The notes under the pieces: model-generated
Told to the model about the DNA's origin: nothing
The model's input: the letters and a program-made list of their open reading frames with translations, nothing else
The model's database searches: none
In this document: positions 31,572-62,992 of the stretch, one piece after another
Layout: every line of letters starts with the position of its first letter
Numbering within the stretch: position 1 is the first letter of the stretch
Source of the DNA: a virus
Lineage: Duplodnaviria > Caudoviricetes
Strand: one strand, 5' to 3'
Length of the DNA stretch: 64,000 bases
Virus record (IMG/VR): IMGVR_UViG_3300029288_007050
Location: 65,157 to 129,156 of that record
Program-made: the position numbers and the translations under genes

Positions 31572-31648
31572 AAATTTTAAAAAATATGATTTGAAGAAAA
31601 TAATAGTTTGTTAAAAACAGCAGTCAAAATCTATGTCTCAGTTATTGT

Positions 31649-31987
31649 TTAATTAATTGCTTCTTCTAAAGAAGTCTCAGTTATGTGTTCAGCTTCTTCA
31701 TCAGACACGACTAATTCGTAATCACCGAGAACAAGAGTAGTGATGTGGCTCAAAGTGTCTGCGACTTCGTTGCGAATTAAATCTTTGATCGACTTTTTTT
31801 GCGTACATTCTGGAAAAGATGCATCTATAATCGTTAAAATTCTTCCAGCTAAAAATCTTATTTGAGAAGAAACAGCTTTACCGGAAAGAGATTTTTCGTC
31901 CATTTTCTCAGCAAATTCTCCAGTTGATATTGTTTTTTTGACTATACTTTGACTTTTTTCTCCAACTTTACCAACTTTGTTTGACAT
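31649..31987 (-). CDS. Hypothetical protein enclosed by an inverted-repeat stem
   Basis: 112-aa ORF flanked by arms 31603-31627 and 32011-32035. Confidence 0.7.
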   Translation of the reverse strand: MSNKVGKVGEKSQSIVKKTISTGEFAEKMDEKSLSGKAVSSQIRFLAGRILTIIDASFPECTQKKSIKDLIRNEVADTLSHITTLVLGDYELVVSDEEAEHITETSLEEAIN

Positions 31988-32083
31988 TGACTTATTAACG
32001 TTGACTCGACTTGACTGCTGTTTTCAAAGAACTATGTTTTTACAAATCATTCTCTAAAAGTTGGAGTCAGAATTAGTAGTTGT

Positions 32084-32548
32084 TTATCTTTCGTCTATGT
32101 CTGACGAATTTCTAACGACCTTTACTAATTCGTAAGCAATAATATTGTTTTTGATTCTTTGCCAAGTTCTTTCAGAATAAGAACCATCAGCTAAATCATT
32201 TCCTCTCAACCAGTCTTCACCAGCTCTTGATTTTCTAACAGAAGATGCACAACCAAGATAACCATTATCACCACTTCTCGGCTGCAGCATGTTGTCTGAA
32301 TCTTTAGTGATAGATTCTCCGCTATCAGGCAATTGTGCTCTAAGCGAATAGTAATGTTCTTTTGTGAAGATTTTCAAACGAATTTGTCCTTGTTTATAGT
32401 CAGAAATGAAAATAAAATCTTCAAATTTTCCAAAACGACTAATTTCTTTAAGCCAATTTGTTAAATCCGGAAATTCTTTGAGAATTTCTAAATTCCATTT
32501 TGGCTGATGTTTTCTAGCAACATCGGGCACTTCTAACGGTTTTGACAT
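32084..32548 (-). CDS. Hypothetical protein enclosed by an inverted-repeat stem
   Basis: Likely start MSKPLEV at 32548; arms 32051-32069 and 32569-32587. Confidence 0.7.
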   Translation of the reverse strand: MSKPLEVPDVARKHQPKWNLEILKEFPDLTNWLKEISRFGKFEDFIFISDYKQGQIRLKIFTKEHYYSLRAQLPDSGESITKDSDNMLQPRSGDNGYLGCASSVRKSRAGEDWLRGNDLADGSYSERTWQRIKNNIIAYELVKVVRNSSDIDER

Positions 32549-32604
32549 TGTTTTTTTTATACCGTTCATGACTCCAACTTTTAAAGAACTATTTGAACGA
32601 AATT

Positions 32605-32749
32605 GTTCTCTGAAGCAGAGACACAATAATGCCGAGTCGACGGCAGACTTAATTCATATTGGTTCCGTCTCTGCTGTTGGCGGTTGACTCATAAAGAGTC
32701 GTAAACCCTCTTAAAGAACCTATCTAATTATGTCTCTTCTTCAAAGAAC
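32605..32749 (-). ncRNA. Stem-enclosed structured RNA candidate
   Basis: GTTCTTTGAAGAAGAGAC/GTCTCTGCTTCAGAGAAC closing stem around ~105 nt containing hairpins. Confidence 0.45.
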
Positions 32750-34497: not shown

Positions 34498-34525
34498 TTT
34501 ACAATATGGTATGATATGGTATTAT
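34498..34525 (+). promoter_or_regulatory. Early promoter driving the cassette array
   Basis: TTTACA-16-TATTAT with TG extension; upstream AAAAGTTATTAACAG shared with the 43260 promoter. Confidence 0.7.
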
Positions 34526-34654: not shown

Positions 34655-35143
34655 ACTGGAGAGATATTCTGGAACTTGATGAAATGTTATCCCTAAAAAA
34701 TAAAACACTTTTATGGAAAACATTACTCAAGTAGAAAACTTATCGTTCAAAATCATCGACGAAGTTAAAAAAGACATCAAGGAAATCGTTCTCAAAAAGA
34801 ACAACGGGCGATGCGACAAGATAATTTTCGAAATGCCCAAAATATCTCAAGCTCAAATAGATAAAGCTTACAACGGCAAGCCCGGTTGTATGTGCGGGTG
34901 TCTCGGAAAATACTCAGTTCTGAAATCTTCTAAAGAAACTGAAGAACTCGGTGAAACAGTTTCGCCTCGCTCAGTCAATTTCGTTTTAAACAAATTGATT
35001 AAAGAAGCTAAACGCGGAATTGAAGTCATCGGAGACTACATTTACTTGATGGACATAGAAGATAGGCGCTACGCCCTTTATCTAAAAAAATAATCAACTA
35101 ACTAAGATAACATTTGCATTGAGTTTCAAAATATCTCTCCAGT
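34655..35143 (+). repeat. Cassette 1 inverted-repeat stem
   Basis: ACTGGAGAGATATTCTGGAACTTGATGAAATGTTATC / GATAACATTTGCATTGAGTTTCAAAATATCTCTCCAGT. Confidence 0.95.
34713..35093 (+). CDS. Hypothetical protein (cassette 1)
   Basis: 126 aa with a GKPGCMCGCLGKY motif. Confidence 0.75.
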   Translation: MENITQVENLSFKIIDEVKKDIKEIVLKKNNGRCDKIIFEMPKISQAQIDKAYNGKPGCMCGCLGKYSVLKSSKETEELGETVSPRSVNFVLNKLIKEAKRGIEVIGDYIYLMDIEDRRYALYLKK

Positions 35144-35249
35144 CGCTAAGAATATAACGAAGAGTTAGAATAGAACGGGGAGTGTTAGATAATAACACTC
35201 GGTGAGGGGAAAATCTAACAGAGGGGTTATTATTCTTATGCAAATCCAA

Positions 35250-35539
35250 CACCGGAGAGATATTCTGGAACTTGATTGTAAACCTTACTAAAAAATATGT
35301 ACAAAATCCTTCAAATCAGTTTCGTAATTTTAGCACTCGTTGGTTTCATATTCGCGATGAACTTCGGAATCAACAAGACTGAAATAAACGAATGCAACAA
35401 GTGGAACAAAGAAGCTAAAGAATATACTGGTTATTACTTTACGCAAAATCAAATTGACCAGTGCGACGCGCACGAGATTACGTTAACGTTAAAATAAAAT
35501 ATCATTAAAACAATCAAGTTTCAAAATATCTCTCTGGTG
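35250..35539 (+). repeat. Cassette 2 inverted-repeat stem
   Basis: CACCGGAGAGATATTCTGGAACTTGATTGT / ACAATCAAGTTTCAAAATATCTCTCTGGTG. Confidence 0.95.
35297..35497 (+). CDS. Small membrane-anchored/secreted protein (cassette 2)
   Basis: N-terminal hydrophobic segment and two Cys. Confidence 0.75.
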   Translation: MYKILQISFVILALVGFIFAMNFGINKTEINECNKWNKEAKEYTGYYFTQNQIDQCDAHEITLTLK

Positions 35540-35639
35540 AAGAGACACTATCAGACTGCGACTGGTACAATCCCCAGAGCAGCGCACTCGAACTGAAGTG
35601 TAAAGAATGCGAAAGCATCTCTCAAAAATAGAGTGTTTA

Positions 35640-35924
35640 TCTTGGCAAGGCATTCTGGAACTTGAAGTTAGAAACAATAGATATGCCAAAACTATCTGAA
35701 GCAGAACAATTTATAATTGGCCAAGCAATGGCTGAAATCAAAAAAGAAAAAGACGTTTCTATCGTCAGAGAAAAAATCTTAGGCACTGTAGTCGGCGTTA
35801 ACAAAAAAGCAGTCAAAATCTTTGATGAATTAGTCGCATCGAAGAGAAAAGCAGGTTTAATAACCTGACTCAAACAATTTAGAATTAAATATCTAACTTC
35901 GAGTTTCAAAACGCCTTGCTAAGA
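35640..35924 (+). repeat. Cassette 3 inverted-repeat stem
   Basis: TCTTGGCAAGGCATTCTGGAACTTGAAGTTAGA / TCTAACTTCGAGTTTCAAAACGCCTTGCTAAGA. Confidence 0.95.
35683..35868 (+). CDS. Hypothetical protein (cassette 3)
   Basis: ATG at 35683 (MPKLSEAEQ) lies inside the stem. Confidence 0.7.
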   Translation: MPKLSEAEQFIIGQAMAEIKKEKDVSIVREKILGTVVGVNKKAVKIFDELVASKRKAGLIT

Positions 35925-35926
35925 AT

Positions 35927-36350
35927 CTAGAGGGAGAATCTGGAACTTAAGTCTCTGAATGTTCTACAACAATGCAAAAACTCTTAAAATATAGAAAAAA
36001 TAAACGTGACATTACAATCGGTACTTCGTTCGCGAATTTATCTATCAATACAAATCTTGATAGACTCGTCGAACTTCTGGGACAAGTTTCTTTTCTTGGC
36101 TCGGGAGACGACAAAGTTCAATTAGAGTGGGCTTTCTACAAATCTCCAACAAGAGTCTTTACAATTTACGACTACAAAGAAAACAAGCCAATCCACGAAA
36201 TTACTGACTGGCACGTAGGCGCAAAAGGTTTTGATAGAGAAGAGATTGTAGACGAGCTCCTAAAAATCGGTTTTACGAAAGACGAAATCGTCTTAGAGAA
36301 TTAAAATTAAACATCATATTCAGAACTTGAGTTTCAAATTCTCTCTCTAG
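35927..36350 (+). repeat. Cassette 4 inverted-repeat stem
   Basis: CTAGAGGGAGAATCTGGAACTTAAG / CTTGAGTTTCAAATTCTCTCTCTAG. Confidence 0.95.
35972..36304 (+). CDS. Hypothetical protein (cassette 4)
   Basis: 110 aa with DDKVQLEW..FTIYDYK..WHVG. Confidence 0.75.
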   Translation: MQKLLKYRKNKRDITIGTSFANLSINTNLDRLVELLGQVSFLGSGDDKVQLEWAFYKSPTRVFTIYDYKENKPIHEITDWHVGAKGFDREEIVDELLKIGFTKDEIVLEN

Positions 36351-36363
36351 TAAAAACACTTTG

Positions 36364-36755
36364 AGTGCTCGTCGGTGAGACAATCTGGAACTCAATAGAC
36401 TCGTCTGAAATTCTACAAATTTATGGTTCTAAAATTGACTTTAACAAAACCTATCAACGGCTACTGGGACGGCGGACCAAAACAAGTCTTCAATTACTCA
36501 ATTGACGGCGAAGTCCAGAGAGATTCCAAAGGGCAATACGTAAGAGTCGGAAGCTGGGAAGCAAATTCTTGGTTTCACGTCGCTGTCGGTAAAACAGTGA
36601 AACAGACTCTAGCAAACGCGAGACGCCATCTTCTCGCTGGTTTAAACAAGATGGCGAAAAGCCAGCTCATTGGCTACAAATTTGAGTACGTCGAATAATT
36701 ATAATTAAAAAAGACGACGAAGTTGAGTTTCAAATCGTCTCACTGAAAGAGTACT
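36364..36755 (+). repeat. Cassette 5 inverted-repeat stem
   Basis: TCGGTGAGACAATCTGGAACTCAA / TTGAGTTTCAAATCGTCTCACTGA. Confidence 0.95.
36423..36698 (+). CDS. Hypothetical protein (cassette 5)
   Basis: 91-aa ORF filling the loop. Confidence 0.75.
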   Translation: MVLKLTLTKPINGYWDGGPKQVFNYSIDGEVQRDSKGQYVRVGSWEANSWFHVAVGKTVKQTLANARRHLLAGLNKMAKSQLIGYKFEYVE

Positions 36756-37297
36756 AAACTAGAGTGCTAGTAGAAAGTCCAGATAGTCTTCTACAAAAAA
36801 GTGCATTGCAATTATAGCTTCTCAACAAATTTCATCACTTTGCTTTCGCGCTCGTCAATTCTTAACAGAATTGTATGAAGATAGAAAGCAAAAAATGAAG
36901 CAAACCGCAGCCTCTACGACTTTCACGCTAGAAGCGTTCGAGCTCGTTCTCAGAAAAGAACAAATCTTCCGAAATCGCAATTTTGAGCTCTAAAGCGTCC
37001 TGGAGACGAACGCTAAATCAAAAGACAAGGTGTAAGAGAGCCAGAGAGAAGGTTTTAAGAGAGAGATGAAATAAACCTCAGCTAAGAATCAGAGAGATTC
37101 TAGAATGTTTAAAATGAGAATCAGAGTCTTCATCTTACTAATTTTCTTTCTCTTTCTTGAGAGCTATTACTATGATAAGCTTAGAGATGGATAGATGCAA
37201 TACAATTTGCATTTACTTTCGTCCGAGCTCTGTTCAATCTTGCAGGGCATCGTTAGAAGGACAATCTGGAACTCGAACATAAGCTCTAACTACAAAA

Positions 37298-37462
37298 ATG
37301 GAAAAACAAAAAGAAGACATAACAGTTGCTTACAATATCTTTTCAAATGGTAGAATCGTAAGCAGCTTTGAAGTTTCGGGCAAAGACGAAGATGAGTGTC
37401 AAGAGAAAGCCGAACAAGAATACGATGACTTCGTATCTAGTCTCAGTCTAGAAGAAGAGTAA
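37298..37462 (+). CDS. Small acidic protein (cassette 6a; not in ORF track)
   Basis: MEKQKEDITVAYNIF...VSGKDEDECQEKAEQEYDDFVSSLSLEEE*, 54 aa. Confidence 0.7.
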   Translation: MEKQKEDITVAYNIFSNGRIVSSFEVSGKDEDECQEKAEQEYDDFVSSLSLEEE

Positions 37463-37475
37463 AAAACTTACTTCT

Positions 37476-37670
37476 ATGACTACATACCTCGTCCCAAAAA
37501 TACCTGGTGTGCCCATAATTAAAATGGACAAGAAGCGAATAAGAGAATTGAGAAAAATTCTCCGCTCCGGCCAGGAAGTTCATTGTTTAGATATGCCTTC
37601 GTATCTAGCAACTCTCCAACAAGCAATTGAAATCGGAGCAACAAGCAAAATCGTCAAAGACTTCGCATAA
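37476..37670 (+). CDS. Hypothetical protein (cassette 6b)
   Basis: 64-aa ORF. Confidence 0.65.
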   Translation: MTTYLVPKIPGVPIIKMDKKRIRELRKILRSGQEVHCLDMPSYLATLQQAIEIGATSKIVKDFA

Positions 37671-37733
37671 CATTTTATATCATTAACAATTTAGAGTAAA
37701 ATTCGAGTTTCAAATCGTCCTTCTAACTTAAAA

Positions 37734-38018
37734 GCTTAGAAGACAGTTCTGGAACTCAAGAGTACACAAAACGATGCAAATAACAACTATCGTTGTATCT
37801 GACAGCGAATACTTTTCATTCTTTCAATATCCTTCTTACGAAAAAGCGTTTAACAAAGTAAAAGAATACGAAGCGATGGGATACGAAGCAAAAATCGTTA
37901 CGAACTATCCAATCGAAAAATCAAGTCGAGAAGCATATCAAAAATTCGCTCCATCTGGCGAATTTATAGATTAAATTAAAATTAACTTATTCTTGAGTTT
38001 CAAAACCGTCTTCTAAGC
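37734..38018 (+). repeat. Cassette 7 inverted-repeat stem
   Basis: GCTTAGAAGACAGTTCTGGAACTCAAGAGTA / TATTCTTGAGTTTCAAAACCGTCTTCTAAGC. Confidence 0.95.
37774..37974 (+). CDS. Hypothetical protein (cassette 7)
   Basis: 66-aa ORF filling the loop. Confidence 0.7.
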   Translation: MQITTIVVSDSEYFSFFQYPSYEKAFNKVKEYEAMGYEAKIVTNYPIEKSSREAYQKFAPSGEFID

Positions 38019-38043
38019 AGAGGAACTATAATTGCAGTGCACT

Positions 38044-38900
38044 GCAGTTAGAAGAGCATTCTGGAACTCGAGGAGCTCATAATAAAATGAATGAACTTAT
38101 CGAAAAAATTAAAAAACCCGATAACTTCAACTTCTATTATATGCAAAGCATTAGAGGTGAAGACGGGATTGAGCACATTCGAAAAGAAAAGGCGCGCTAT
38201 TTTGTCACACAAGATGGCAGAATAGCTAGATATGCTAGACGATTGCATAAACGTGGTTATGCTATAGATGATTTGAGCAGAATCATAGTTGAAGACAAGA
38301 AAAGAATTAAGACTCCAGAACAAAAATGGAACGAAAGCTGGTTTAAAGTTTCAAAGAGGTTAGAAAAATCTGGCCTCTATGAAGACTTGTTAAAGAACGT
38401 ACATCTTGGTTTAGAGATTGGATATGAAAAAATCCAATTAGCTTACAATTTGTACTGGGAAGATGATAAGAATCTCAGCTACGTCGAAAATCAGAAACGA
38501 AGAGACGAGGAAATCAAAAATCTTGATGAAAGACTTTTGATAGACAGCCATCCGAATACTGAAATCATCTGGTATATGAAATATCCTGCCAAAGTTAAAA
38601 AAATGAATTTTGGCAAACCGAGATGGGATGACGGTTCGACTAACAAAGAAAAACTTCAGCTCATCGCAAAAGCGCTCAAAGAGAAAAAAGAAGTATCAGT
38701 CGGTGGTCGAAATGGTTACGATATTTCATTCTCGTACAATCCAAAAATAAACAAAGCGTGGTATTCTGAAGAATACAGAGGATGCGGAAACGGCCATTAC
38801 TATCTTGCATTAGATGCAACTCACGCTTTATTTTACGAGGATGATTAAAGATTATTAACTAACGAGCAACCTTCGAGTTTCAAAACGCTCTTCTAACTGC
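38044..38900 (+). repeat. Cassette 8 inverted-repeat stem
   Basis: GCAGTTAGAAGAGCATTCTGGAACTCGAGG / CTTCGAGTTTCAAAACGCTCTTCTAACTGC. Confidence 0.95.
38087..38848 (+). CDS. Hypothetical protein (cassette 8)
   Basis: 253 aa; C-terminal AWYSEEYRGCGNGHYYL. Confidence 0.8.
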   Translation: MNELIEKIKKPDNFNFYYMQSIRGEDGIEHIRKEKARYFVTQDGRIARYARRLHKRGYAIDDLSRIIVEDKKRIKTPEQKWNESWFKVSKRLEKSGLYEDLLKNVHLGLEIGYEKIQLAYNLYWEDDKNLSYVENQKRRDEEIKNLDERLLIDSHPNTEIIWYMKYPAKVKKMNFGKPRWDDGSTNKEKLQLIAKALKEKKEVSVGGRNGYDISFSYNPKINKAWYSEEYRGCGNGHYYLALDATHALFYEDD

Positions 38901-40396
38901 GTCGGAAGAGTATTCTGGAACTTGAAAAAGCTACAAACAATCTATGAATTGGTTCGAAGTATCAAAAGAAGGATTGAAACAGCTTCAGTTAGGAAAACCT
39001 AAGCATTACGTTGCTAGAGAGCTAGTACAGAATGCTTGGGATGAAAACATCAAAGTCTGCAAATTCGTGTCTCTCTGGGCAAACGGCGTAGCATCTATCT
39101 CAGTAGAAGATGATAGTCCCGAAGGCTTCCGAAATCTCCGCGATGCTTTCACATTGTTTGCGCCTACTTACAAACGAGCAAATCCTGAGAAAAGAGGACG
39201 TTTCAATTTAGGAGAAAAACAAGCTCTCGCAATTTGCGACAAAGCTAAATTAGAAACAACAAAAGGAACTGTTCTGTTTGAGAAGACGAGCCGAACACAA
39301 AGCTCCAAGAAAAGAGATGCTGGAAGCAAAATATCTGTAGAACTGAAAATGTCTAAAACTGAATATGAGGAAATGCTGGAGATAGTTAAAAACTATCTCG
39401 TACCAGAAAACATAGAGTTCTTAGTAAACGGAGAAAAGATGAAGTTTTCAAAACCTTTCAAATCAATTAGGGTTTCTTTACCCACTGAAATTGAAGAGAA
39501 TGGTGTTCTAAAGAAAACTCTCAGAATGGCTGATGTCAATATCATCAAATCAAACGGGAAAACTTTTCTTTATGAGATGGGAATACCCGTCGTAGAGATT
39601 GAATGTCAATTTGGAATTGATGTTCAACAAAAAGTACCCCTTTCGATTGATAGAGACAGCGTTCCACATTCCTACATATCTATTCTCTATGCTGAAGTTC
39701 TCAATGCTACATACGAAGAAGTAGATGAAGAAAATTCATCTCAAGTTTGGGTCAGAGAAGCAACAGGACACAAAAGAATTATTCCAGAAGCTGTGAAATC
39801 TATCGTCAATAAAAGATACGGTGACAAAGTAGTCGTTGCGAATCCATTCGACCGAAATTCAATTGATGACGCAATTTCAGCTGGTTATAAAGTTATCACT
39901 GGAAACGAATTATCAAAAGAAGAATGGTCGAACATCAGAGAATCAGAAGCAATTAAATCTTCTTCTGATTTGTTTGGTTCTGGTACAACTTCTTCAACAC
40001 CGTATGAAGCTGACGAGAATATGAAAGCAGTTGCAAAATTAGCAAAGAAGATAGCAAAAAGATGTCTCAAAATCGACATCGCTGTCCAATTTGCTAAATG
40101 GAGTGGAGTTAGTGCACAATATGGTAGCAGAACTCTTACTTTCAACGTTCAATCGTTGGGAAAAGGATTCTTCAAACCGGCGTTGTCAGCCAACACTTTA
40201 GATTTGATTATCCACGAAATCGCTCACGAACACGGACAACACACAGAAAAAAGCTATCAAGAAGCAATCACAAGAATTGCTGGAGAATTAGTTATCATCG
40301 CGTTAGAAGAGCCAAAGTTTTTCGATTGCACTTAGTCGACGCAATCAAATTTATCATTAACTTAGCTTCTTTCAAGTTTCAAAGCGCTCTTCTGAC
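38901..40396 (+). repeat. Cassette 9 inverted-repeat stem
   Basis: GTCGGAAGAGTATTCTGGAACTTGAAA / TTTCAAGTTTCAAAGCGCTCTTCTGAC, ~1.43 kb apart. Confidence 0.93.
38944..40335 (+). CDS. GHKL (HATPase) ATPase fused to an HEXXH zincin-like domain
   Basis: RELVQNAWD, VEDD..GF, RGRFNLGEK; C-terminal IIHEIAHEHGQH. Confidence 0.8.
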   Translation: MNWFEVSKEGLKQLQLGKPKHYVARELVQNAWDENIKVCKFVSLWANGVASISVEDDSPEGFRNLRDAFTLFAPTYKRANPEKRGRFNLGEKQALAICDKAKLETTKGTVLFEKTSRTQSSKKRDAGSKISVELKMSKTEYEEMLEIVKNYLVPENIEFLVNGEKMKFSKPFKSIRVSLPTEIEENGVLKKTLRMADVNIIKSNGKTFLYEMGIPVVEIECQFGIDVQQKVPLSIDRDSVPHSYISILYAEVLNATYEEVDEENSSQVWVREATGHKRIIPEAVKSIVNKRYGDKVVVANPFDRNSIDDAISAGYKVITGNELSKEEWSNIRESEAIKSSSDLFGSGTTSSTPYEADENMKAVAKLAKKIAKRCLKIDIAVQFAKWSGVSAQYGSRTLTFNVQSLGKGFFKPALSANTLDLIIHEIAHEHGQHTEKSYQEAITRIAGELVIIALEEPKFFDCT

Positions 40397-40398
40397 TA

Positions 40399-41275
40399 AA
40401 TTCGGAGAAGTATTCTGGAACTTAAAAGCAGGACAAAACAAATGAAGAAAAAGTATCAATTAGCATTGAGTCATACGACTGACTTAGAAGCGAAAAACGA
40501 ACAAGAAGCAGTGAAGAAGTATTTTGAGTCAATTGCGCAAAACAATATGGACTTAGAAAACTTCATAACGTCAAATCTTAAAATTGATAGAGCTTTTTTA
40601 GCTAGTCAACTTTCAGGTAAAGCGTTAGATAAAGTTCTCGAAGATAATTACGGTATCAATATTGAAGATGACTTCGGTTCAGTCAGAGATAGAGACGAAG
40701 CTCCATTCTTAGATATTGAAGCATTCGGTCTAGAAATCAACGAGAATCAGATGTCTTGGAATCTTGATTATCCAAACAGACAACTCTTCTTTACGTTTCC
40801 CCACGATGGTTCTGGAAGCAGACAGATAGGAATTTGTATCACGAACAAAAACAAACTAGTGAAAAAGCTTCAAAAAGATTTGAAACTACCAGAAAGAATT
40901 GCGAAAGCAATGAGAAACGAAGACATCTCTTTGAATTTCAGAACACAGTATTTCGGGGGAGGGGATGGAAGAACATACTTCGAGTTTTCTGACAACACTG
41001 AAAAAGGAATCCTTGGTGTCACAAGAGTTGATGGAATCAAGAACGTAAAACTAATCTATCTCGAAGAAAAACTTCAAGAATGGTTCGACGAAAATATCGT
41101 GAATCGTTTATTGAAGACATTTCAAGCAACCTATGATTATCTTACGTCGAAAGATGCAATCATAGAAACGTTAGACGCTAACGAGTTTATGTTTACGAAA
41201 GACGGTCATCGTCTGTAGACAAACATTATCAATTTAACTTCCTCGCTTTTAAGTTTCAAAATGCTTCTCTAAATT
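40399..41275 (+). repeat. Cassette 10 inverted-repeat stem
   Basis: AATTCGGAGAAGTATTCTGGAACTTAAAAGC / GCTTTTAAGTTTCAAAATGCTTCTCTAAATT. Confidence 0.95.
40442..41218 (+). CDS. Hypothetical protein (cassette 10)
   Basis: 258 aa; C-terminal YDYLTSKDAIIETLDANEFMFTKDG. Confidence 0.8.
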   Translation: MKKKYQLALSHTTDLEAKNEQEAVKKYFESIAQNNMDLENFITSNLKIDRAFLASQLSGKALDKVLEDNYGINIEDDFGSVRDRDEAPFLDIEAFGLEINENQMSWNLDYPNRQLFFTFPHDGSGSRQIGICITNKNKLVKKLQKDLKLPERIAKAMRNEDISLNFRTQYFGGGDGRTYFEFSDNTEKGILGVTRVDGIKNVKLIYLEEKLQEWFDENIVNRLLKTFQATYDYLTSKDAIIETLDANEFMFTKDGHRL

Positions 41276-41717
41276 GATTGAGTAGACATTCTGGAACTTG
41301 ATGTACAGAAAGCAAAAAACAAATCCTATGAAGTTATTAACAAAAGAAATCATCAAAAGATTTGCTGAAGTCGGAAGTCAAGAAAACGAGAAAGACCCGA
41401 TTGTCATTGCAAAGTTCTTCAACCCGACGGGAGCAGGAACTTGGTATGCTACAGAATACGACCCGAAAGAAAAAATCTTTTTCGGATACGTTTCAATTTT
41501 CGGCGACCACAATGACGAATGGGGTTCTTTCTCATTAGAGGAATTAGAAAACGTCGAATGCAAAGCTGGTTTAAGTATTGAACGTGACTTACATTGCGGA
41601 GAGCAAAAGATAAGCGAGTTTAATATCCCATCATTGCGTTCATAAAAAATAAAAATCTAACGCTTTTTCTATCTAGTCGGATAGAAGTACTTCAAGTTTC
41701 AAAACGTCTGCTCAATC
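41276..41717 (+). repeat. Cassette 11 inverted-repeat stem
   Basis: GATTGAGTAGACATTCTGGAACTTGATGTAC / GTACTTCAAGTTTCAAAACGTCTGCTCAATC. Confidence 0.95.
41328..41645 (+). CDS. DUF2958-like protein (cassette 11)
   Basis: MKLLTKEI, KFFNPTGAGTWYATEYD, EWGSFSLEEL, IERDLH. Confidence 0.8.
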   Translation: MKLLTKEIIKRFAEVGSQENEKDPIVIAKFFNPTGAGTWYATEYDPKEKIFFGYVSIFGDHNDEWGSFSLEELENVECKAGLSIERDLHCGEQKISEFNIPSLRS

Positions 41718-41718
41718 G

Positions 41719-42352
41719 TTGAGTAGACAATCCGGGACTTAAATGAGAAAACAAATGCTTATCCAACTTTATCACGGCACTAACAACAATAACGCAAAAC
41801 GAATTCTAAAAGAAGGTTTCAAAGATAGAATCGAAAGCAAAGAGAAAAACTGGAAAGACGAAATAGCAAGCCAACCTGGTTTCGTCTATCTGACTCGTGC
41901 TTATCCATTTTTCTACGCGATGAATGCTGCTAACTCAGAAGATGAAGCAACAGTATTATTAGTTGAAGTCGACTCAGATGACTTATATCCAGATGAAGAC
42001 TTTCTTAGAGAAGTTCGCATTAAAGACAAAGATAAGAAAATCGACATCAGAGAGTTCAAAGAATACGGTTCGTTATCTCTTGAAAAACTTGGAAATGTAG
42101 CAATCCAGCCTTCGAAAATCAAACGCGTAATTGGCAGTAAATCTTTTAAGACGAGTGATATGATATGGTATAGCGACCCAGCAATGTCTATCTATAACTA
42201 TATGTTTCTGGGAAACTATTACCGAGAACTGACAGACACGTGGTGGAAAGGCGGAGACTGGAAAAAAATAAATCAAACAGAATCATTATTAAAATCGATG
42301 AAAAGGTCGAAGAAATCTTAACGCTCATTTGAGTTCCGAATTGTCTACTCAA
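41719..42352 (+). repeat. Cassette 12 inverted-repeat stem (compensatory core changes)
   Basis: TTGAGTAGACAATCCGGGACTTAAATGAG / CTCATTTGAGTTCCGAATTGTCTACTCAA. Confidence 0.95.
41755..42321 (+). CDS. ADP-ribosyltransferase-fold protein (cassette 12)
   Basis: LYHGT...ILKEG...GFVYLT...YA...VLLVEVD..DLYPDED. Confidence 0.6.
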   Translation: MLIQLYHGTNNNNAKRILKEGFKDRIESKEKNWKDEIASQPGFVYLTRAYPFFYAMNAANSEDEATVLLVEVDSDDLYPDEDFLREVRIKDKDKKIDIREFKEYGSLSLEKLGNVAIQPSKIKRVIGSKSFKTSDMIWYSDPAMSIYNYMFLGNYYRELTDTWWKGGDWKKINQTESLLKSMKRSKKS

Positions 42353-42395
42353 AGTAAGACGGTTATCCTGGAACTTAAGAACAGTATTAAAATCT

Positions 42396-42614
42396 ATGAA
42401 TGATATCATTCAAATTCCAATTGCTCATCCAAAATGTCATTTGGATGAATTGCGTAAAAAATTCAACGTGCCTGAAAAATACACTGACGAAGTGTTGCTA
42501 CAGGCGCTCGTAGGCATCGTCATTGATGACTATATGAATGTAGAAAAAATCGAGGCCGACAATCTTCAAGAAGTATTAACAGACGGCAAAATCGCCGACA
42601 GATATTTATGTTAG
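42396..42614 (+). CDS. Hypothetical protein (cassette 13a)
   Basis: 72-aa ORF. Confidence 0.7.
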   Translation: MNDIIQIPIAHPKCHLDELRKKFNVPEKYTDEVLLQALVGIVIDDYMNVEKIEADNLQEVLTDGKIADRYLC

Positions 42615-42745
42615 AAAAAACAATTGACGAAGTAATAAGCGACTTGATTCAATCATTCGATGACGAATTGCAAAATCTGACAAATGAAGAACTTGAAGAG
42701 AAGTACGAAGAAAGAATGGGAGAGGAAGTAAAAATCATCGCTTAA
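42608..42745 (+). CDS. Small acidic protein (cassette 13b; not in ORF track)
   Basis: MLEKTIDEVISDLIQSFDDELQNLTNEELEEKYEERMGEEVKIIA*. Confidence 0.65.
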   Translation: MLEKTIDEVISDLIQSFDDELQNLTNEELEEKYEERMGEEVKIIA

Positions 42746-42913
42746 TCAAAAAATAATTCTTAACGTCTGTTTCTTAAGTTCCGAGACAGCCGTCTTACGT
42801 AGAAGAGTCAAAAAGCTAGATAGATGAAATAATACAGAGACTGCAAGAAACAAGCGCTCTAGAACGCTATCAGAGCCAAGAGAAATCAAAGAGCTGAGTA
42901 TTATATCATAGCT

Positions 42914-43204
42914 TCTGAACTACTTTCTGGGACTTTTAATTCTGGTTAAGAAAAATGAAAAGAAAACTATTACATCTTAAATCTATCAAGACTCTAAAGT
43001 CATTAGAAAAAAATCTCAAGCAAAGATACGATGGTGTCGAGAAAAACATCAAGAAACTAGAAATCAAAAAAATAAAAATCTGGCAAGACATTAAAAACGT
43101 CGAAAATGTTATTGCTAAAAAAGAAGAATGAGATATTTTTAGTCGTCTATCTCAAAACATTATCAACTAATCACCAGAATTTGAGTCTCGCAAAGTAGTC
43201 CAGA
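42914..43204 (+). repeat. Cassette 14 inverted-repeat stem (degenerate)
   Basis: TCTGAACTACTTTCTGGGACTTTTAATTCTGG / CCAGAATTTGAGTCTCGCAAAGTAGTCCAGA. Confidence 0.75.
42955..43131 (+). CDS. Small basic coiled-coil protein (cassette 14; not in ORF track)
   Basis: MKRKLLHLKSIKTLKSLEKNLKQRY...AKKEE*, 58 aa. Confidence 0.6.
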   Translation: MKRKLLHLKSIKTLKSLEKNLKQRYDGVEKNIKKLEIKKIKIWQDIKNVENVIAKKEE

Positions 43205-43259
43205 CGAAATGATAAAATACATATTCTGAACGCTAAAAAGTTATTAACAGCTCAACCTA

Positions 43260-43287
43260 TTTACAAGGTGGTTGGATATGGTATAAT
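43260..43287 (+). promoter_or_regulatory. Early promoter
   Basis: TTTACA-16-TATAAT with TG extension. Confidence 0.8.
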
Positions 43288-43319: not shown

Positions 43320-43459
43320 GATAGGTTCTTGCTTCAATCTCCCTCGACAGAGTTTCAGATTCAAGAGTTTAAAGTTTTATACTCTCAGTTGGCTATCATC
43401 GTACTGTATAAATAACTCTTGTCTAAATAGCCCGGTGGAGATTAAAAGAGGAACATATC
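43320..43459 (+). ncRNA. Stem-enclosed ncRNA candidate A
   Basis: GATAGGTTCTTGCTTCAATCTCC / GGAGATTAAAAGAGGAACATATC closing stem; no ORF. Confidence 0.55.
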
Positions 43460-43464
43460 CTCTA

Positions 43465-43739
43465 GTAGTTCTCTAAAATCTGGTGTAGCATAATAACCCT
43501 AGACGGGTAATGCATATAGTGGACAACGTCATTACGATAGAATATGACGTAATCATATTCTTGAGAGTTAGGCGATAAGGAGTTGCAAATCCAAACTCAC
43601 ACGAACAATATGAATTAAAAACCTGCCACTATAATTAAGAGCTAAGAACTCGGTCTAATAAACTACTCAAGGGCACAAGGCAGAAGCTACGGTCATTCCA
43701 GCATCTGTCTCAAGGCCCCACCAGATTTTAGGGAATTAC
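43465..43739 (+). ncRNA. Stem-enclosed multibranch ncRNA candidate B (~275 nt)
   Basis: GTAGTTCTCTAAAATCTGGTG / CACCAGATTTTAGGGAATTAC; internal helices TATAGTGG/CCACTATA and ACGTCAT/ATGACGT. Confidence 0.6.
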
Positions 43740-43753
43740 GAAATAGCATTAAA

Positions 43754-43843
43754 TGATGTTCTCTTCAATTAAAGTATTTGTCCCAGGCTAAGTCATATAA
43801 TAATTGCTGGTGAGAACAAATACTTTAACTAAAGAGAATGTCA
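43754..43843 (+). ncRNA. Long hairpin / processing-stem candidate C
   Basis: TGATGTTCTCTTCAATTAAAGTATTTGT / ACAAATACTTTAACTAAAGAGAATGTCA. Confidence 0.55.
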
Positions 43844-62901: not shown

Positions 62902-62984
62902 GCCGGGGTGTCGTAATGGCAGCCGAGGTAGGCTTAAAACCTGCTGAGCATTTGCTCGTGAGGGTTCGACTCCCTCTCCCGGCA
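62902..62984 (+). tRNA. tRNA-Leu(UAA)
   Basis: GCCGGGG acceptor stem; anticodon arm GTAGG-CTTAAAA-CCTGC; long variable arm; GGTTCGACTCC T-arm; CCA not encoded. Confidence 0.92.
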
Positions 62985-62992
62985 CAAATATT

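Follow-up and report, generated by a model that had tools for sequence, protein, structure and literature searches.

An uncultured landfill phage (Caudoviricetes) carries 13 early genes or gene pairs, each surrounded by its own RNA stem, on the + strand at positions 34655-42798 of the window (the 64,000-nucleotide stretch of DNA analysed here). Each duplex comprises about 24 universally paired positions; its outer half varies and its inner half, CUGGAACU/AGUUUCAA, is conserved. The interpretation that we favour, with slightly better than even confidence, is that the array yields a single early polycistronic transcript in which each cassette has a long-range duplex of its own that loops out its accessory gene or gene pair, and that these duplexes would be substrates for host RNase III, cut at their mismatch-marked centre so that each gene is released as a monocistronic mRNA.

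Stem positions are counted from two anchors, the C of CTGGAACT in the 5′ arm (position 0) and the last A of AGTTTCAA in the 3′ arm, with negative numbers on the outer side; the array bounds correspond to position -14 of stem 1 and position -14 of stem 13. The stems measure 24-26 bp (25-31 bp when each helix is followed to its own limits), and their arms lie 253-1466 nt apart. When each 5′ arm was compared with all thirteen 3′ arms, the cognate arm was the best partner in 13 cases out of 13, in both directions, the mean pairing energy being -35.5 kcal/mol for cognate versus -17.7 kcal/mol for non-cognate combinations. Since the cognate arms always pair best, the stems are not the product of chance. 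Minimum free energy folds of 2.8-kb and 4.8-kb pieces formed all 12 of the stems tested, over 23-25 of 26 positions. A search for local inverted repeats within 120 nt found none, and the enclosed segments, which are ORFs of 54-463 amino acids, gave no Rfam match.

The analysis was extended to 73 distinct stems, from the window and from seven related metagenomic phage lineages with the same arrays; these are related by descent and recombination and are therefore not independent. In this set, outer positions -13 to -4 are 98.9% paired, a figure that falls to 71.4 ± 1.1% when the partners are shuffled and to about 44% in slid registers, and 59 distinct outer arms occur among the 73 stems. Pairing of at least 95% extends from -13 to +10, a zone of 24 positions with its centre at -1.5, between the two mismatches described below. 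The pairs at -1 and -2 are nearly always A/U, and at +2 and +5 to +7 the stems are invariant, 71-73 of the 73 agreeing. At variable positions G·U pairs outnumber A·C pairs by 109 to 12, which identifies the sense RNA as the folding strand. A search for two-fold symmetry over 276 window pairings gave as best match +8..+10 against the flipped -11..-13 (overlap 0.89), an element also centred on -1.5 and carrying U·G wobbles. Sequence symmetry about this centre is otherwise unremarkable, only the distal 3 bp being symmetric.

All array genes lie on the same strand as a candidate promoter at 34498, which shows 84% identity over 38 nt with a second promoter at 43260 (family D13). These two were the only strong promoters found, and no strong + strand terminator was found inside the array. 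Most likely, judging from this arrangement, the promoter at 34498 drives the whole array. Apart from a DUF2958 label on the ORF of cassette 11, no family matches were found for the cassette proteins. The ORF of cassette 10 (family A) is present in every related array.

Table 1. The cassette array and its candidate promoter. Positions are those of the window; paired residues are given as 5′ arm/3′ arm.
Feature	Position	Strand	ORF(s)	C·A at 0	Pair at -3	Remarks
Promoter	34498..34525	+				Candidate sigma-70-type, extended -10: TTTACA, 16 nt, TATTAT; 10/12 matches, TG before -10
Cassette 1	34655..35143	+	34713-35093 (126 aa)	34669/35129	A-U	Arms 34655-34680 / 35118-35143
Cassette 2	35251..35538	+	35297-35497 (66 aa)	35265/35524	A-U	
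Cassette 3	35641..35923	+	35683-35868 (61 aa)	35655/35909	A·C 35652/35912	Predicted cuts 35654/35655 (between these residues) and 35911/35912 (likewise)
Cassette 4	35926..36351	+	35972-36304 (110 aa)	35940/36337	A-U	
Cassette 5	36371..36747	+	36423-36698 (91 aa)	36385/36733	A·C 36382/36736	
Cassette 6	37252..37727	+	37298-37462, 37476-37670	37266/37713	A·C 37263/37716	
Cassette 7	37735..38017	+	37774-37974 (66 aa)	37749/38003		A·C at -4 (37745/38007), 3 bp out
Cassette 8	38047..38897	+	38087-38848 (253 aa)	38061/38883	A·C 38058/38886	
Cassette 9	38901..40396	+	38944-40335 (463 aa)	38915/40382	A·C 38912/40385	
Cassette 10	40401..41273	+	40442-41218 (258 aa, family A)	40415/41259	A-U	
Cassette 11	41277..41716	+	41301-41645 (DUF2958)	41291/41702	A·C 41288/41705	
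Cassette 12	41718..42353	+	41743-42321 (192 aa)	41732/42339	A-U	Variant core CCGGGACT/AGTTCCGA
Cassette 13	42354..42798	+	42396-42614, 42608-42745	42368/42784	A·C 42365/42787	
Variant cassette 14	42901..43217	+	42955-43131			Beyond 34655-42798; core CTGGGACT/AGTCTCGC, C·C at homologous position 0 (42927/43191)

The initial annotation had pointed to a C-A mismatch at one core position in every well-formed stem, maintained even where neighbouring pairs had changed. Both observations held: the mismatch occupies position 0 in 13 of 13 stems, and it is kept in stem 12, whose core changes are compensatory (U-A to C-G at +1), and in stem 13, where the -1 pair has gone from U-A to C-G. The same is true of the reciprocal A·C placed exactly 2 bp further out, at -3, in stems 3, 5, 6, 8, 9, 11 and 13; stems 1, 2, 4, 10 and 12 have A-U there, and in stem 7 the A·C lies one step outward. 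In the wider set C·A is found in 71 of 73 stems. One-step repairs are nearly absent (A to G in 2 of 73, C to U in none), whereas flanking core positions show the same kind of transition in 13-28 of the 73 stems (about 18-40%), which argues that the mismatch itself is under selection. The A·C at -3, present in 28 of the 73, is facultative, and this position flips between A-U and A·C among orthologous cassettes in nearly every cassette family; that of cassette 10, for instance, is A-U here and A·C in the orthologues of lineages L206 and L256. Thus, while the geometry and the weak-pair precedents discussed below lend partial support to the proposal that a mismatch / 2 bp / mismatch unit marks the scissile region, the two-mismatch unit is not a requirement. 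A recognition role for GAACT/AGTTT, also proposed initially, is plausible in view of the invariance of +5 to +7.

Several features of the stems fit RNase III. The enzyme calls for a helix of about two turns (at least about 22 bp), a size that the stems reach in the sense transcript, and the published RNase III motif spans 24 positions, 12 on each side (PMC6212723). The enzyme cuts long-range mRNA duplexes of 10-36 bp, with arms up to 505 nt apart and a 2-bp stagger (PMC11780869); distal boxes carry U·G wobbles (PMC11780869, PMC1540722). Both the paired zone and the symmetric element centre on -1.5, the place at which the 2-nt staggered cut of a dimeric RNase III would be expected. Weak pairs have been described next to cuts: T7 R1.1 has U·C at proximal-box position 4, beside the scissile bond (PMC1540722), and Aquifex pre-16S rRNA has an A-C pair adjoining a cut (PMC3074117). 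The same phage has other stem families, with different cores, which enclose units on both phage strands and fold more stably as sense strand, a pattern that fits a generic double-stranded RNA enzyme. A search of the phage record for an RNase III or dsRBD gene found none, which is why the host enzyme is proposed. A search for RNA runs containing the sequence likewise found none.

According to this model, the RNase III dimer would bind the duplex symmetrically, with cleavage at the soft centre. In the 5′ arm the cut would fall between -1 and 0, immediately before the mismatched C; in the 3′ arm it would lie 2 bp away, between A0+2 and A0+3 (A0 being the mismatched A). The product would be a monocistronic mRNA with its 5′-phosphate and 3′ ends clamped in a helix of 11-19 bp with a 2-nt 3′ overhang, close to the residual stem of about 12-20 bp envisaged at the outset; such ends may stabilise or insulate the message. 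The invariant C·A would provide a weak pair beside the scissile bond and fix the register; at the symmetric position, -3, A·C would be tolerated as a nearly neutral alternative to A-U.

Some features speak against this register. It would place the invariant G-C at +2 in the proximal box, at position 2, and a G-C pair there reduces binding or cleavage by the E. coli and Aquifex enzymes about 10-fold (PMC1540722, PMC3074117). By the rules for these enzymes, which may not be those of the host, the inner half of the proposed site has a favourable C·A at proximal-box position 4 but an unfavourable G-C at position 2 (71 of 73 stems), and the outer half has A-U at position 2 in 46 stems and G-C in 18. 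Furthermore, pairing beside the cuts exceeds 90% at the sites mapped in vivo in E. coli and B. subtilis (PMC6212723, PMC11780869), a norm from which the array departs in the proposed register, 97% of the stems having C·A at position 0 and 42% being unpaired at -3. RNase III might then cut one strand only, as at T7 R1.1, or in a different register, the mismatch being a positional marker or an antideterminant. Where a target site contains mismatches, loops or bulges, engagement of a catalytic site is reportedly restricted to one strand (PMC3867540), and one cut per stem would suffice to separate neighbouring genes. In about half of the stems, moreover, the helix reaches inward to +14 or further, an extension that often shifts the centre of the individual stem to about -1 to 0. 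With the register moved inward, however, many stems would have less than 11 bp left on their inner side, and -1.5 is the centre of both the paired zone and the symmetric distal elements. We regard these variants as unlikely.

It is likewise doubtful that a protein other than RNase III, either a dedicated phage product (many of the genes are ORFans) or a host nuclease or RNA-binding protein, reads the inner half together with the C·A. Conservation of the inner half goes far beyond the usual needs of RNase III, and within the 129-kb record the core is confined to this array. The phage also encodes an RNA-repair set, consisting of RtcB, Ro60 and an RNA ligase of the nick-sealing type (OB-fold plus PF09414), which amounts to an investment in RNA end chemistry. 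Yet no candidate protein was identified, the cassette proteins lacking family matches, and the other stems of the phage have different cores. Strong conservation is not peculiar to this array, as the RNase III sites of T7 and SP82 (the latter cited in PMC4838370) are strongly conserved among themselves, and recombination between slots can also maintain a common core.

A third possibility is that the stems are not cut at all but act as clamps or insulators, or bind RNase III or another double-stranded RNA-binding protein without cleavage, the mismatches being catalytic antideterminants. Their role could then be to keep the folding and translation of each gene separate, to shield the transcript, or to link termination with re-initiation. 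Binding without cleavage does occur with E. coli RNase III, certain pairs or motifs uncoupling the two activities (PMC1540722), and in a minimal Aquifex substrate an A-C pair inhibited or blocked cutting (PMC3074117). The start codons of cassettes 11 and 12 fall inside the helix (that of cassette 12 pairs with the stop-codon region), suggesting translational control. Against this, the known catalytic antideterminants are strong G-C pairs beside the scissile bond, and a weak C·A is the reverse of that (PMC1540722); moreover, one would expect almost any bacterium to cut an unprocessed 8.7-kb early transcript with 13 duplexes of perfect length for RNase III. We consider the uncut alternative improbable.

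Cassette indels between strains show that the repeats also shape how the accessory gene pool of the phage evolves, a pool that probably serves host takeover or anti-defence. Two cassettes are each wholly missing in a landfill strain, cassette 7 (joint 37727 to 38020) and cassette 9 (joint 38898 to 40402), with breakpoints exactly at the outer stem edges. Natural strains also show cargo replacements between cores (38068 to 38876; 35664 to 35900) and differ in cassette order, and across phages one stem slot holds different cargos and one cargo sits in different slots. That the inverted repeats are mainly DNA-level recombination scaffolds of integron-like or PeSL-like type, with RNA pairing as a by-product, would account for these breakpoints at stem edges and cores and for the swapping of cargos, but it is very improbable, given that the G·U excess reflects selection on one transcribed strand, that the arms are 250-1470 nt apart, that recombination needs no compensatory upkeep of 59 private outer arms and is an expected side effect of any conserved repeat, and that the record has no tyrosine recombinase and the array no attC-type local palindrome or GTTRRRY core.

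If the cuts map as predicted, this phage clade uses a natural plug-and-play expression cassette, in which any gene inserted between the two conserved cores would be cut out as a standard mRNA clamped at both ends, irrespective of the genes around it. Synthetic biologists have constructed equivalent designs by means of RNase III, Csy4 or ribozyme insulators. The 73 stems would constitute a natural substrate series, with one invariant mismatch in many covarying contexts, suited to probing how a weak scissile-adjacent pair sets the register and rate of RNase III and how end-paired mRNAs resist exonucleases. In a much more speculative extension, to which we attach very little probability, the paired ends left by cleavage would be joined to give closed or end-sealed mRNAs, either by the phage RNA ligase acting on the 5′-phosphate and 3′-OH left by RNase III, or by RtcB acting on ends made by a dedicated nuclease. 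End-sealing would be a bacterial-virus counterpart of the bulge-helix-bulge/RtcB circularisation of archaeal rRNA precursors. The archaeal motif itself (two 3-nt bulges, 4-bp helix) was rejected as a match, the stems having 1x1 mismatches 2 bp apart, the second of them facultative.

Among known systems, integron arrays resemble the present one in having one promoter, promoterless swappable single-gene cassettes, and imperfect inverted repeats with unpaired bases. Unlike attC, however, the pairing spans the gene, there are no R′/R″ core sites, and the strand asymmetry points to RNA. An attC identity was rejected, the cores CTGGAACT/AGTTTCAA not fitting RYYYAAC/GTTRRRY; a search for an integron integrase or tyrosine recombinase (PF00589) gave no match in the record, which is 83% complete. 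The hyperplastic early regions of T4-type phages likewise contain ORFans flanked by short conserved motifs, the PeSL cassettes, and through these motifs modules are gained, lost and replaced (PMC2839356, PMC4122927). PeSLs are units of promoter plus stem-loop terminator, whereas the array cassettes have neither and their flanks pair across the gene; this identity was rejected on the basis of the promoter and terminator searches.

As in the early transcripts of T7/T3 (R0.3-R1.3) and SP82, repeated homologous sites separate genes in an early polycistronic RNA. In those phages the processed ends stabilise the mRNAs. Each of their sites is a local hairpin between genes, with an internal loop, and cleavage usually affects a single strand; T7 R1.1 shares with the array a non-canonical pair beside the scissile bond, here a proposed one (PMC1540722). 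In the array the arms flank the gene, so that both mRNA ends would stay paired. The long-range RNase III duplexes of B. subtilis and E. coli similarly have arms hundreds of nucleotides apart and distal-box U·G pairs (PMC11780869, PMC6212723), but these cellular sites are sporadic, not arrayed, and well paired beside the cuts. There is also a likeness with the leader-trailer stalks of bacterial rrn operons, whose RNase III sites flank 16S and 23S rRNA and in which sequences up to 1.5 kb apart pair around a functional RNA in a polycistronic precursor to form a duplex of RNase III size, with A-C beside a cut in the case of Aquifex pre-16S (PMC3074117). Rather than rRNA, the phage array encloses 13-14 tandem protein-coding cassettes, which share a conserved core and the C·A while each keeps a private covarying outer helix. 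What is new here is the invariant mismatch, together with the slot-and-cargo behaviour of the cassettes.

Eleven exact copies of TCTGGAACT occur on the plus strand, and the partner sequence AGTTTCAAA clusters in the same stretch (Table). Pairing joins every 5′ core to a 3′ core lying 253-1466 nt further downstream, with one or two small ORFs enclosed between them. Positions are numbered from the C of CTGGAACT, taken as 0, with negative values pointing outward; the array begins exactly at the outer edge (-14) of stem 1 and ends at that of stem 13. The cognate is the best partner for every 5′ arm among the thirteen 3′ arms, and vice versa (-35.5 versus -17.7 kcal/mol). Stems formed in 12 of 12 cases tested in minimum free energy folds of 2.8-kb and 4.8-kb pieces. 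A local hairpin joining the 3′ arm of one cassette to the 5′ arm of the next was rejected: although the cores are able to pair, every outer arm fits its own cognate alone. Searching Rfam identified no credible family.

Features of the array and its surroundings (window positions unless stated otherwise)
Feature	Coordinates	Strand	Remark
Array, stems 1 to 13	34655-42798	+	
Exact core copies	34668-41290	+	partner core in same stretch
Promoter	34498		strong, sigma-70 type, extended -10
Second promoter	43260		near-copy of the first
Spacer, cassettes 1/2	35144-35250		folding z -4.4
Spacer, cassettes 2/3	35540-35640		folding z -2.7
Spacer, cassettes 5/6	36748-37251		folding z -2.5
Inverted repeat, 24 nt	36800-36823 / 38020-38043		would enclose cassettes 6 and 7 jointly
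Cassette 7 deletion	joint 37727 to 38020		landfill strains
Cassette 9 deletion	joint 38898 to 40402		landfill strains
Cargo swaps	38068 to 38876; 35664 to 35900		landfill strains
Altered order	38926/38087		landfill strains
Slot downstream of 258-aa gene	41277-41716		
Cassette 12, core to core	41732-42339	+	start codon 41743; stop-codon region 42319-42321
Cassette 14, variant	42901-43217		C·C at core position
Units with other core	31603-32749	-	three units
ORF-free region, 520 nt	43320-43843		past second promoter; folds into long closed stems
tRNA-Leu (TAA)	62902-62985		sole tRNA in window
RNA-repair-like gene set	G000:C1:29866-41655 (whole record)		outside window

Related metagenomic contigs were reached through homologues of the 258-aa protein of cassette 10 (family A), and one more, L206, through a pattern scan. 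The same kind of array was present in all related contigs found. After cleaning, the set comprised 73 distinct stems from 8 lineages, with 59 different outer arms. Pairing at the outer positions -13 to -4 reaches 98.9%; shuffling the partners lowers it to 71.4 ± 1.1%, and sliding the register to about 44%. Variable positions contain 109 G·U but 12 A·C pairs, indicating that the sense strand is the folding strand. L206 was the one true relative from exact-pattern scans of viral contigs (a 14-mer and a two-core pattern), nearly all other hits being single chance matches; scans guided by the 463-aa protein of cassette 9 (viral contigs) or by family A (genome and viral contigs) yielded nothing new. 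LR745208.1, a 485-kb uncultured phage, encodes a homologue of the 463-aa protein (35% identical) but lacks such stems. PHROGs and Pfam searches assigned no function to the cassette proteins, except for one DUF2958.

The C·A mismatch at position 0, described in the initial annotation, is present in all 13 array stems and is kept despite compensatory change nearby (+1 or -1, stems 12 and 13). The reciprocal A·C at -3, two pairs from the C·A, was likewise found in stems 3, 5, 6, 8, 9, 11 and 13; stem 7 has an A·C at -4. In the larger set, 71 of 73 stems carry C·A at position 0. Repair by a single transition is scarce (A to G in 2 of 73, C to U in none) but like transitions are common at neighbouring positions (+1 in 17 stems, +3 in 13, +4 in 18 and 12 for the 5′ and 3′ arms, -3 in about 30). 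The C·A is therefore maintained by selection and is more than an inherited feature. At -3, 31 stems have A-U, 28 have A·C and 6 have G-C, and nearly all families of same-gene cassettes include both the A-U and the A·C state; pairing is therefore dispensable there. Within -13 to +10, only 0 and -3 are free of the need for pairing, and the two pairs between them are almost always A/U. The earlier proposal that mismatch, two base-pairs and mismatch together form the RNase III scissile region stands in part. The reciprocal A·C is not required and the two-mismatch unit is not obligatory; RNase III-type excision at a centre marked by the mismatch is the best explanation, a reading somewhat likelier right than wrong.

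The zone paired in at least 95% of the 73 stems extends from -13 to +10, making 24 positions centred on -1.5. The published RNase III motif, with 12 positions on each side, has the same span (PMC6212723). When each 3-bp window was compared with each flipped 3-bp window (276 pairings), the top two-fold symmetric pairing was +8..+10 with -11..-13 (overlap 0.89, centre -1.5). This distal element has a pyrimidine-purine pair (U·G in about one third of stems) followed by a purine-pyrimidine pair and an A-U; distal-box U·G pairs are known from RNase III sites (PMC1540722, PMC11780869). The symmetry is confined to the distal 3-bp elements: a score over all positions was unremarkable and did not single out -1.5. 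On the inner side, many stems extend further. A dimer centred on -1.5 would cut the 5′ arm between -1 and 0 and the 3′ arm between A0+2 and A0+3 (A0 being the 3′-arm A of the core mismatch); these are the bonds we infer to be cut. Each cut would fall 5′ of a pyrimidine, that of the C·A or of the U-A pair; the products would have a 2-nt 3′ overhang, and the gene would retain a closing helix of 11-19 bp. As no RNase III or dsRBD gene was found in the 129-kb phage record, the enzyme would be that of the host.

Several published observations speak against such cleavage. In sites mapped in vivo, pairing close to the cuts exceeds 90% (PMC6212723, PMC11780869), and an A-C pair blocked cleavage of a minimal substrate in Aquifex (PMC3074117). 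Both the E. coli and the Aquifex enzyme are inhibited when proximal-box position 2 is G-C (PMC1540722, PMC3074117); the invariant +2 would fall on that position in the proposed register, although the rules come from these two enzymes and the host enzyme may differ. Finally, mismatches can restrict RNase III to one strand (PMC3867540), and cleavage of a single strand is a possible outcome here. Binding without cleavage is also possible, as is the action of a dedicated factor on the stems.

DNA contigs of related landfill strains lack cassette 7 or cassette 9 exactly, carry other cargo between conserved cores, or differ in cassette and gene order. Breakpoints of the whole-cassette deletions coincide with the outer stem edges. 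The slot downstream of the 258-aa gene has a constant outer arm, TTGAGTAGAC, in six phages (the window, L206, L249, L253, L256 and L260) and holds five unrelated cargos; the same cargo is also found in different stems across phages. Judged from these comparisons, the stems behave as fixed slots and the genes as exchangeable cargo, and the indels, swaps, order changes and shared slots show that the repeated cores also serve as points of recombination. Recombination as the purpose of the stems is at odds with the strand asymmetry (109 G·U to 12 A·C), the private covarying outer arms and the failure to find a tyrosine recombinase in the phage record, and we regard it as something that follows from the design.

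The window makes up the second half of an IMG/VR record 129 kb long, which derives from landfill and groundwater metagenomes. The portal protein is less than 31% identical to that of any deposited phage, and a search of 50,697 phage records with the array by megablast gave no match; by these two comparisons the phage has no close cultured relative. Its genes include a family-B DNA polymerase, a primase-helicase, a chaperonin, an RNA ligase, RtcB and a Ro60-like protein. The RNA-repair-like set combines an RNA ligase with an N-terminal OB fold (PF21189 + PF09414), LemA, a TPM phosphatase, RtcB and a Ro60/TROVE-vWA protein. In the whole record, GGAG precedes 2 of 160 genes; Shine-Dalgarno motifs are essentially absent before genes and the phage does not use them. 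Gene leaders are A-rich, and the strongest promoters are of canonical sigma-70 type with an extended -10 despite the scarcity of Shine-Dalgarno motifs. The array occupies the transcript stretch between two such promoters, with no plus-strand terminators in between.

Three spacers lack a convincing ORF, and their folds are more stable than those of shuffled sequences (Table). They may be small RNAs freed by the same processing. The start codon of cassette 12 lies within the inner helix, paired with the stop-codon region, and cassette 11 has an ATG at +10; start codons so placed suggest possible translational control by the clamp. Elsewhere, the minus-strand units are enclosed by stems with another core (GUUCUUUGAA/UUCAGAGAAC), with the sense (minus) strand giving the more stable fold in every case; one stem consists of 11 bp, an A·G mismatch and 11 bp. 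Units with a different core, again folding better on the sense strand, also follow the second promoter. Such units would fit a generic dsRNA enzyme.

A literature search found no published description of phage genes flanked by RNase III stems. Published work on the enzyme also speaks in favour of the reading. RNase III cuts mRNA duplexes of 10-36 bp that form over long range, their arms as much as 505 nt apart, with a 2-bp stagger (PMC11780869), and its ideal substrate has 22 bp with the dyad between the cuts (PMC3867540). Catalysis is suppressed by a G-C pair adjoining the scissile bond, where the efficient T7 R1.1 site has a U·C (PMC1540722), and in the Aquifex pre-16S stalk an A-C pair adjoins a cut (PMC3074117).
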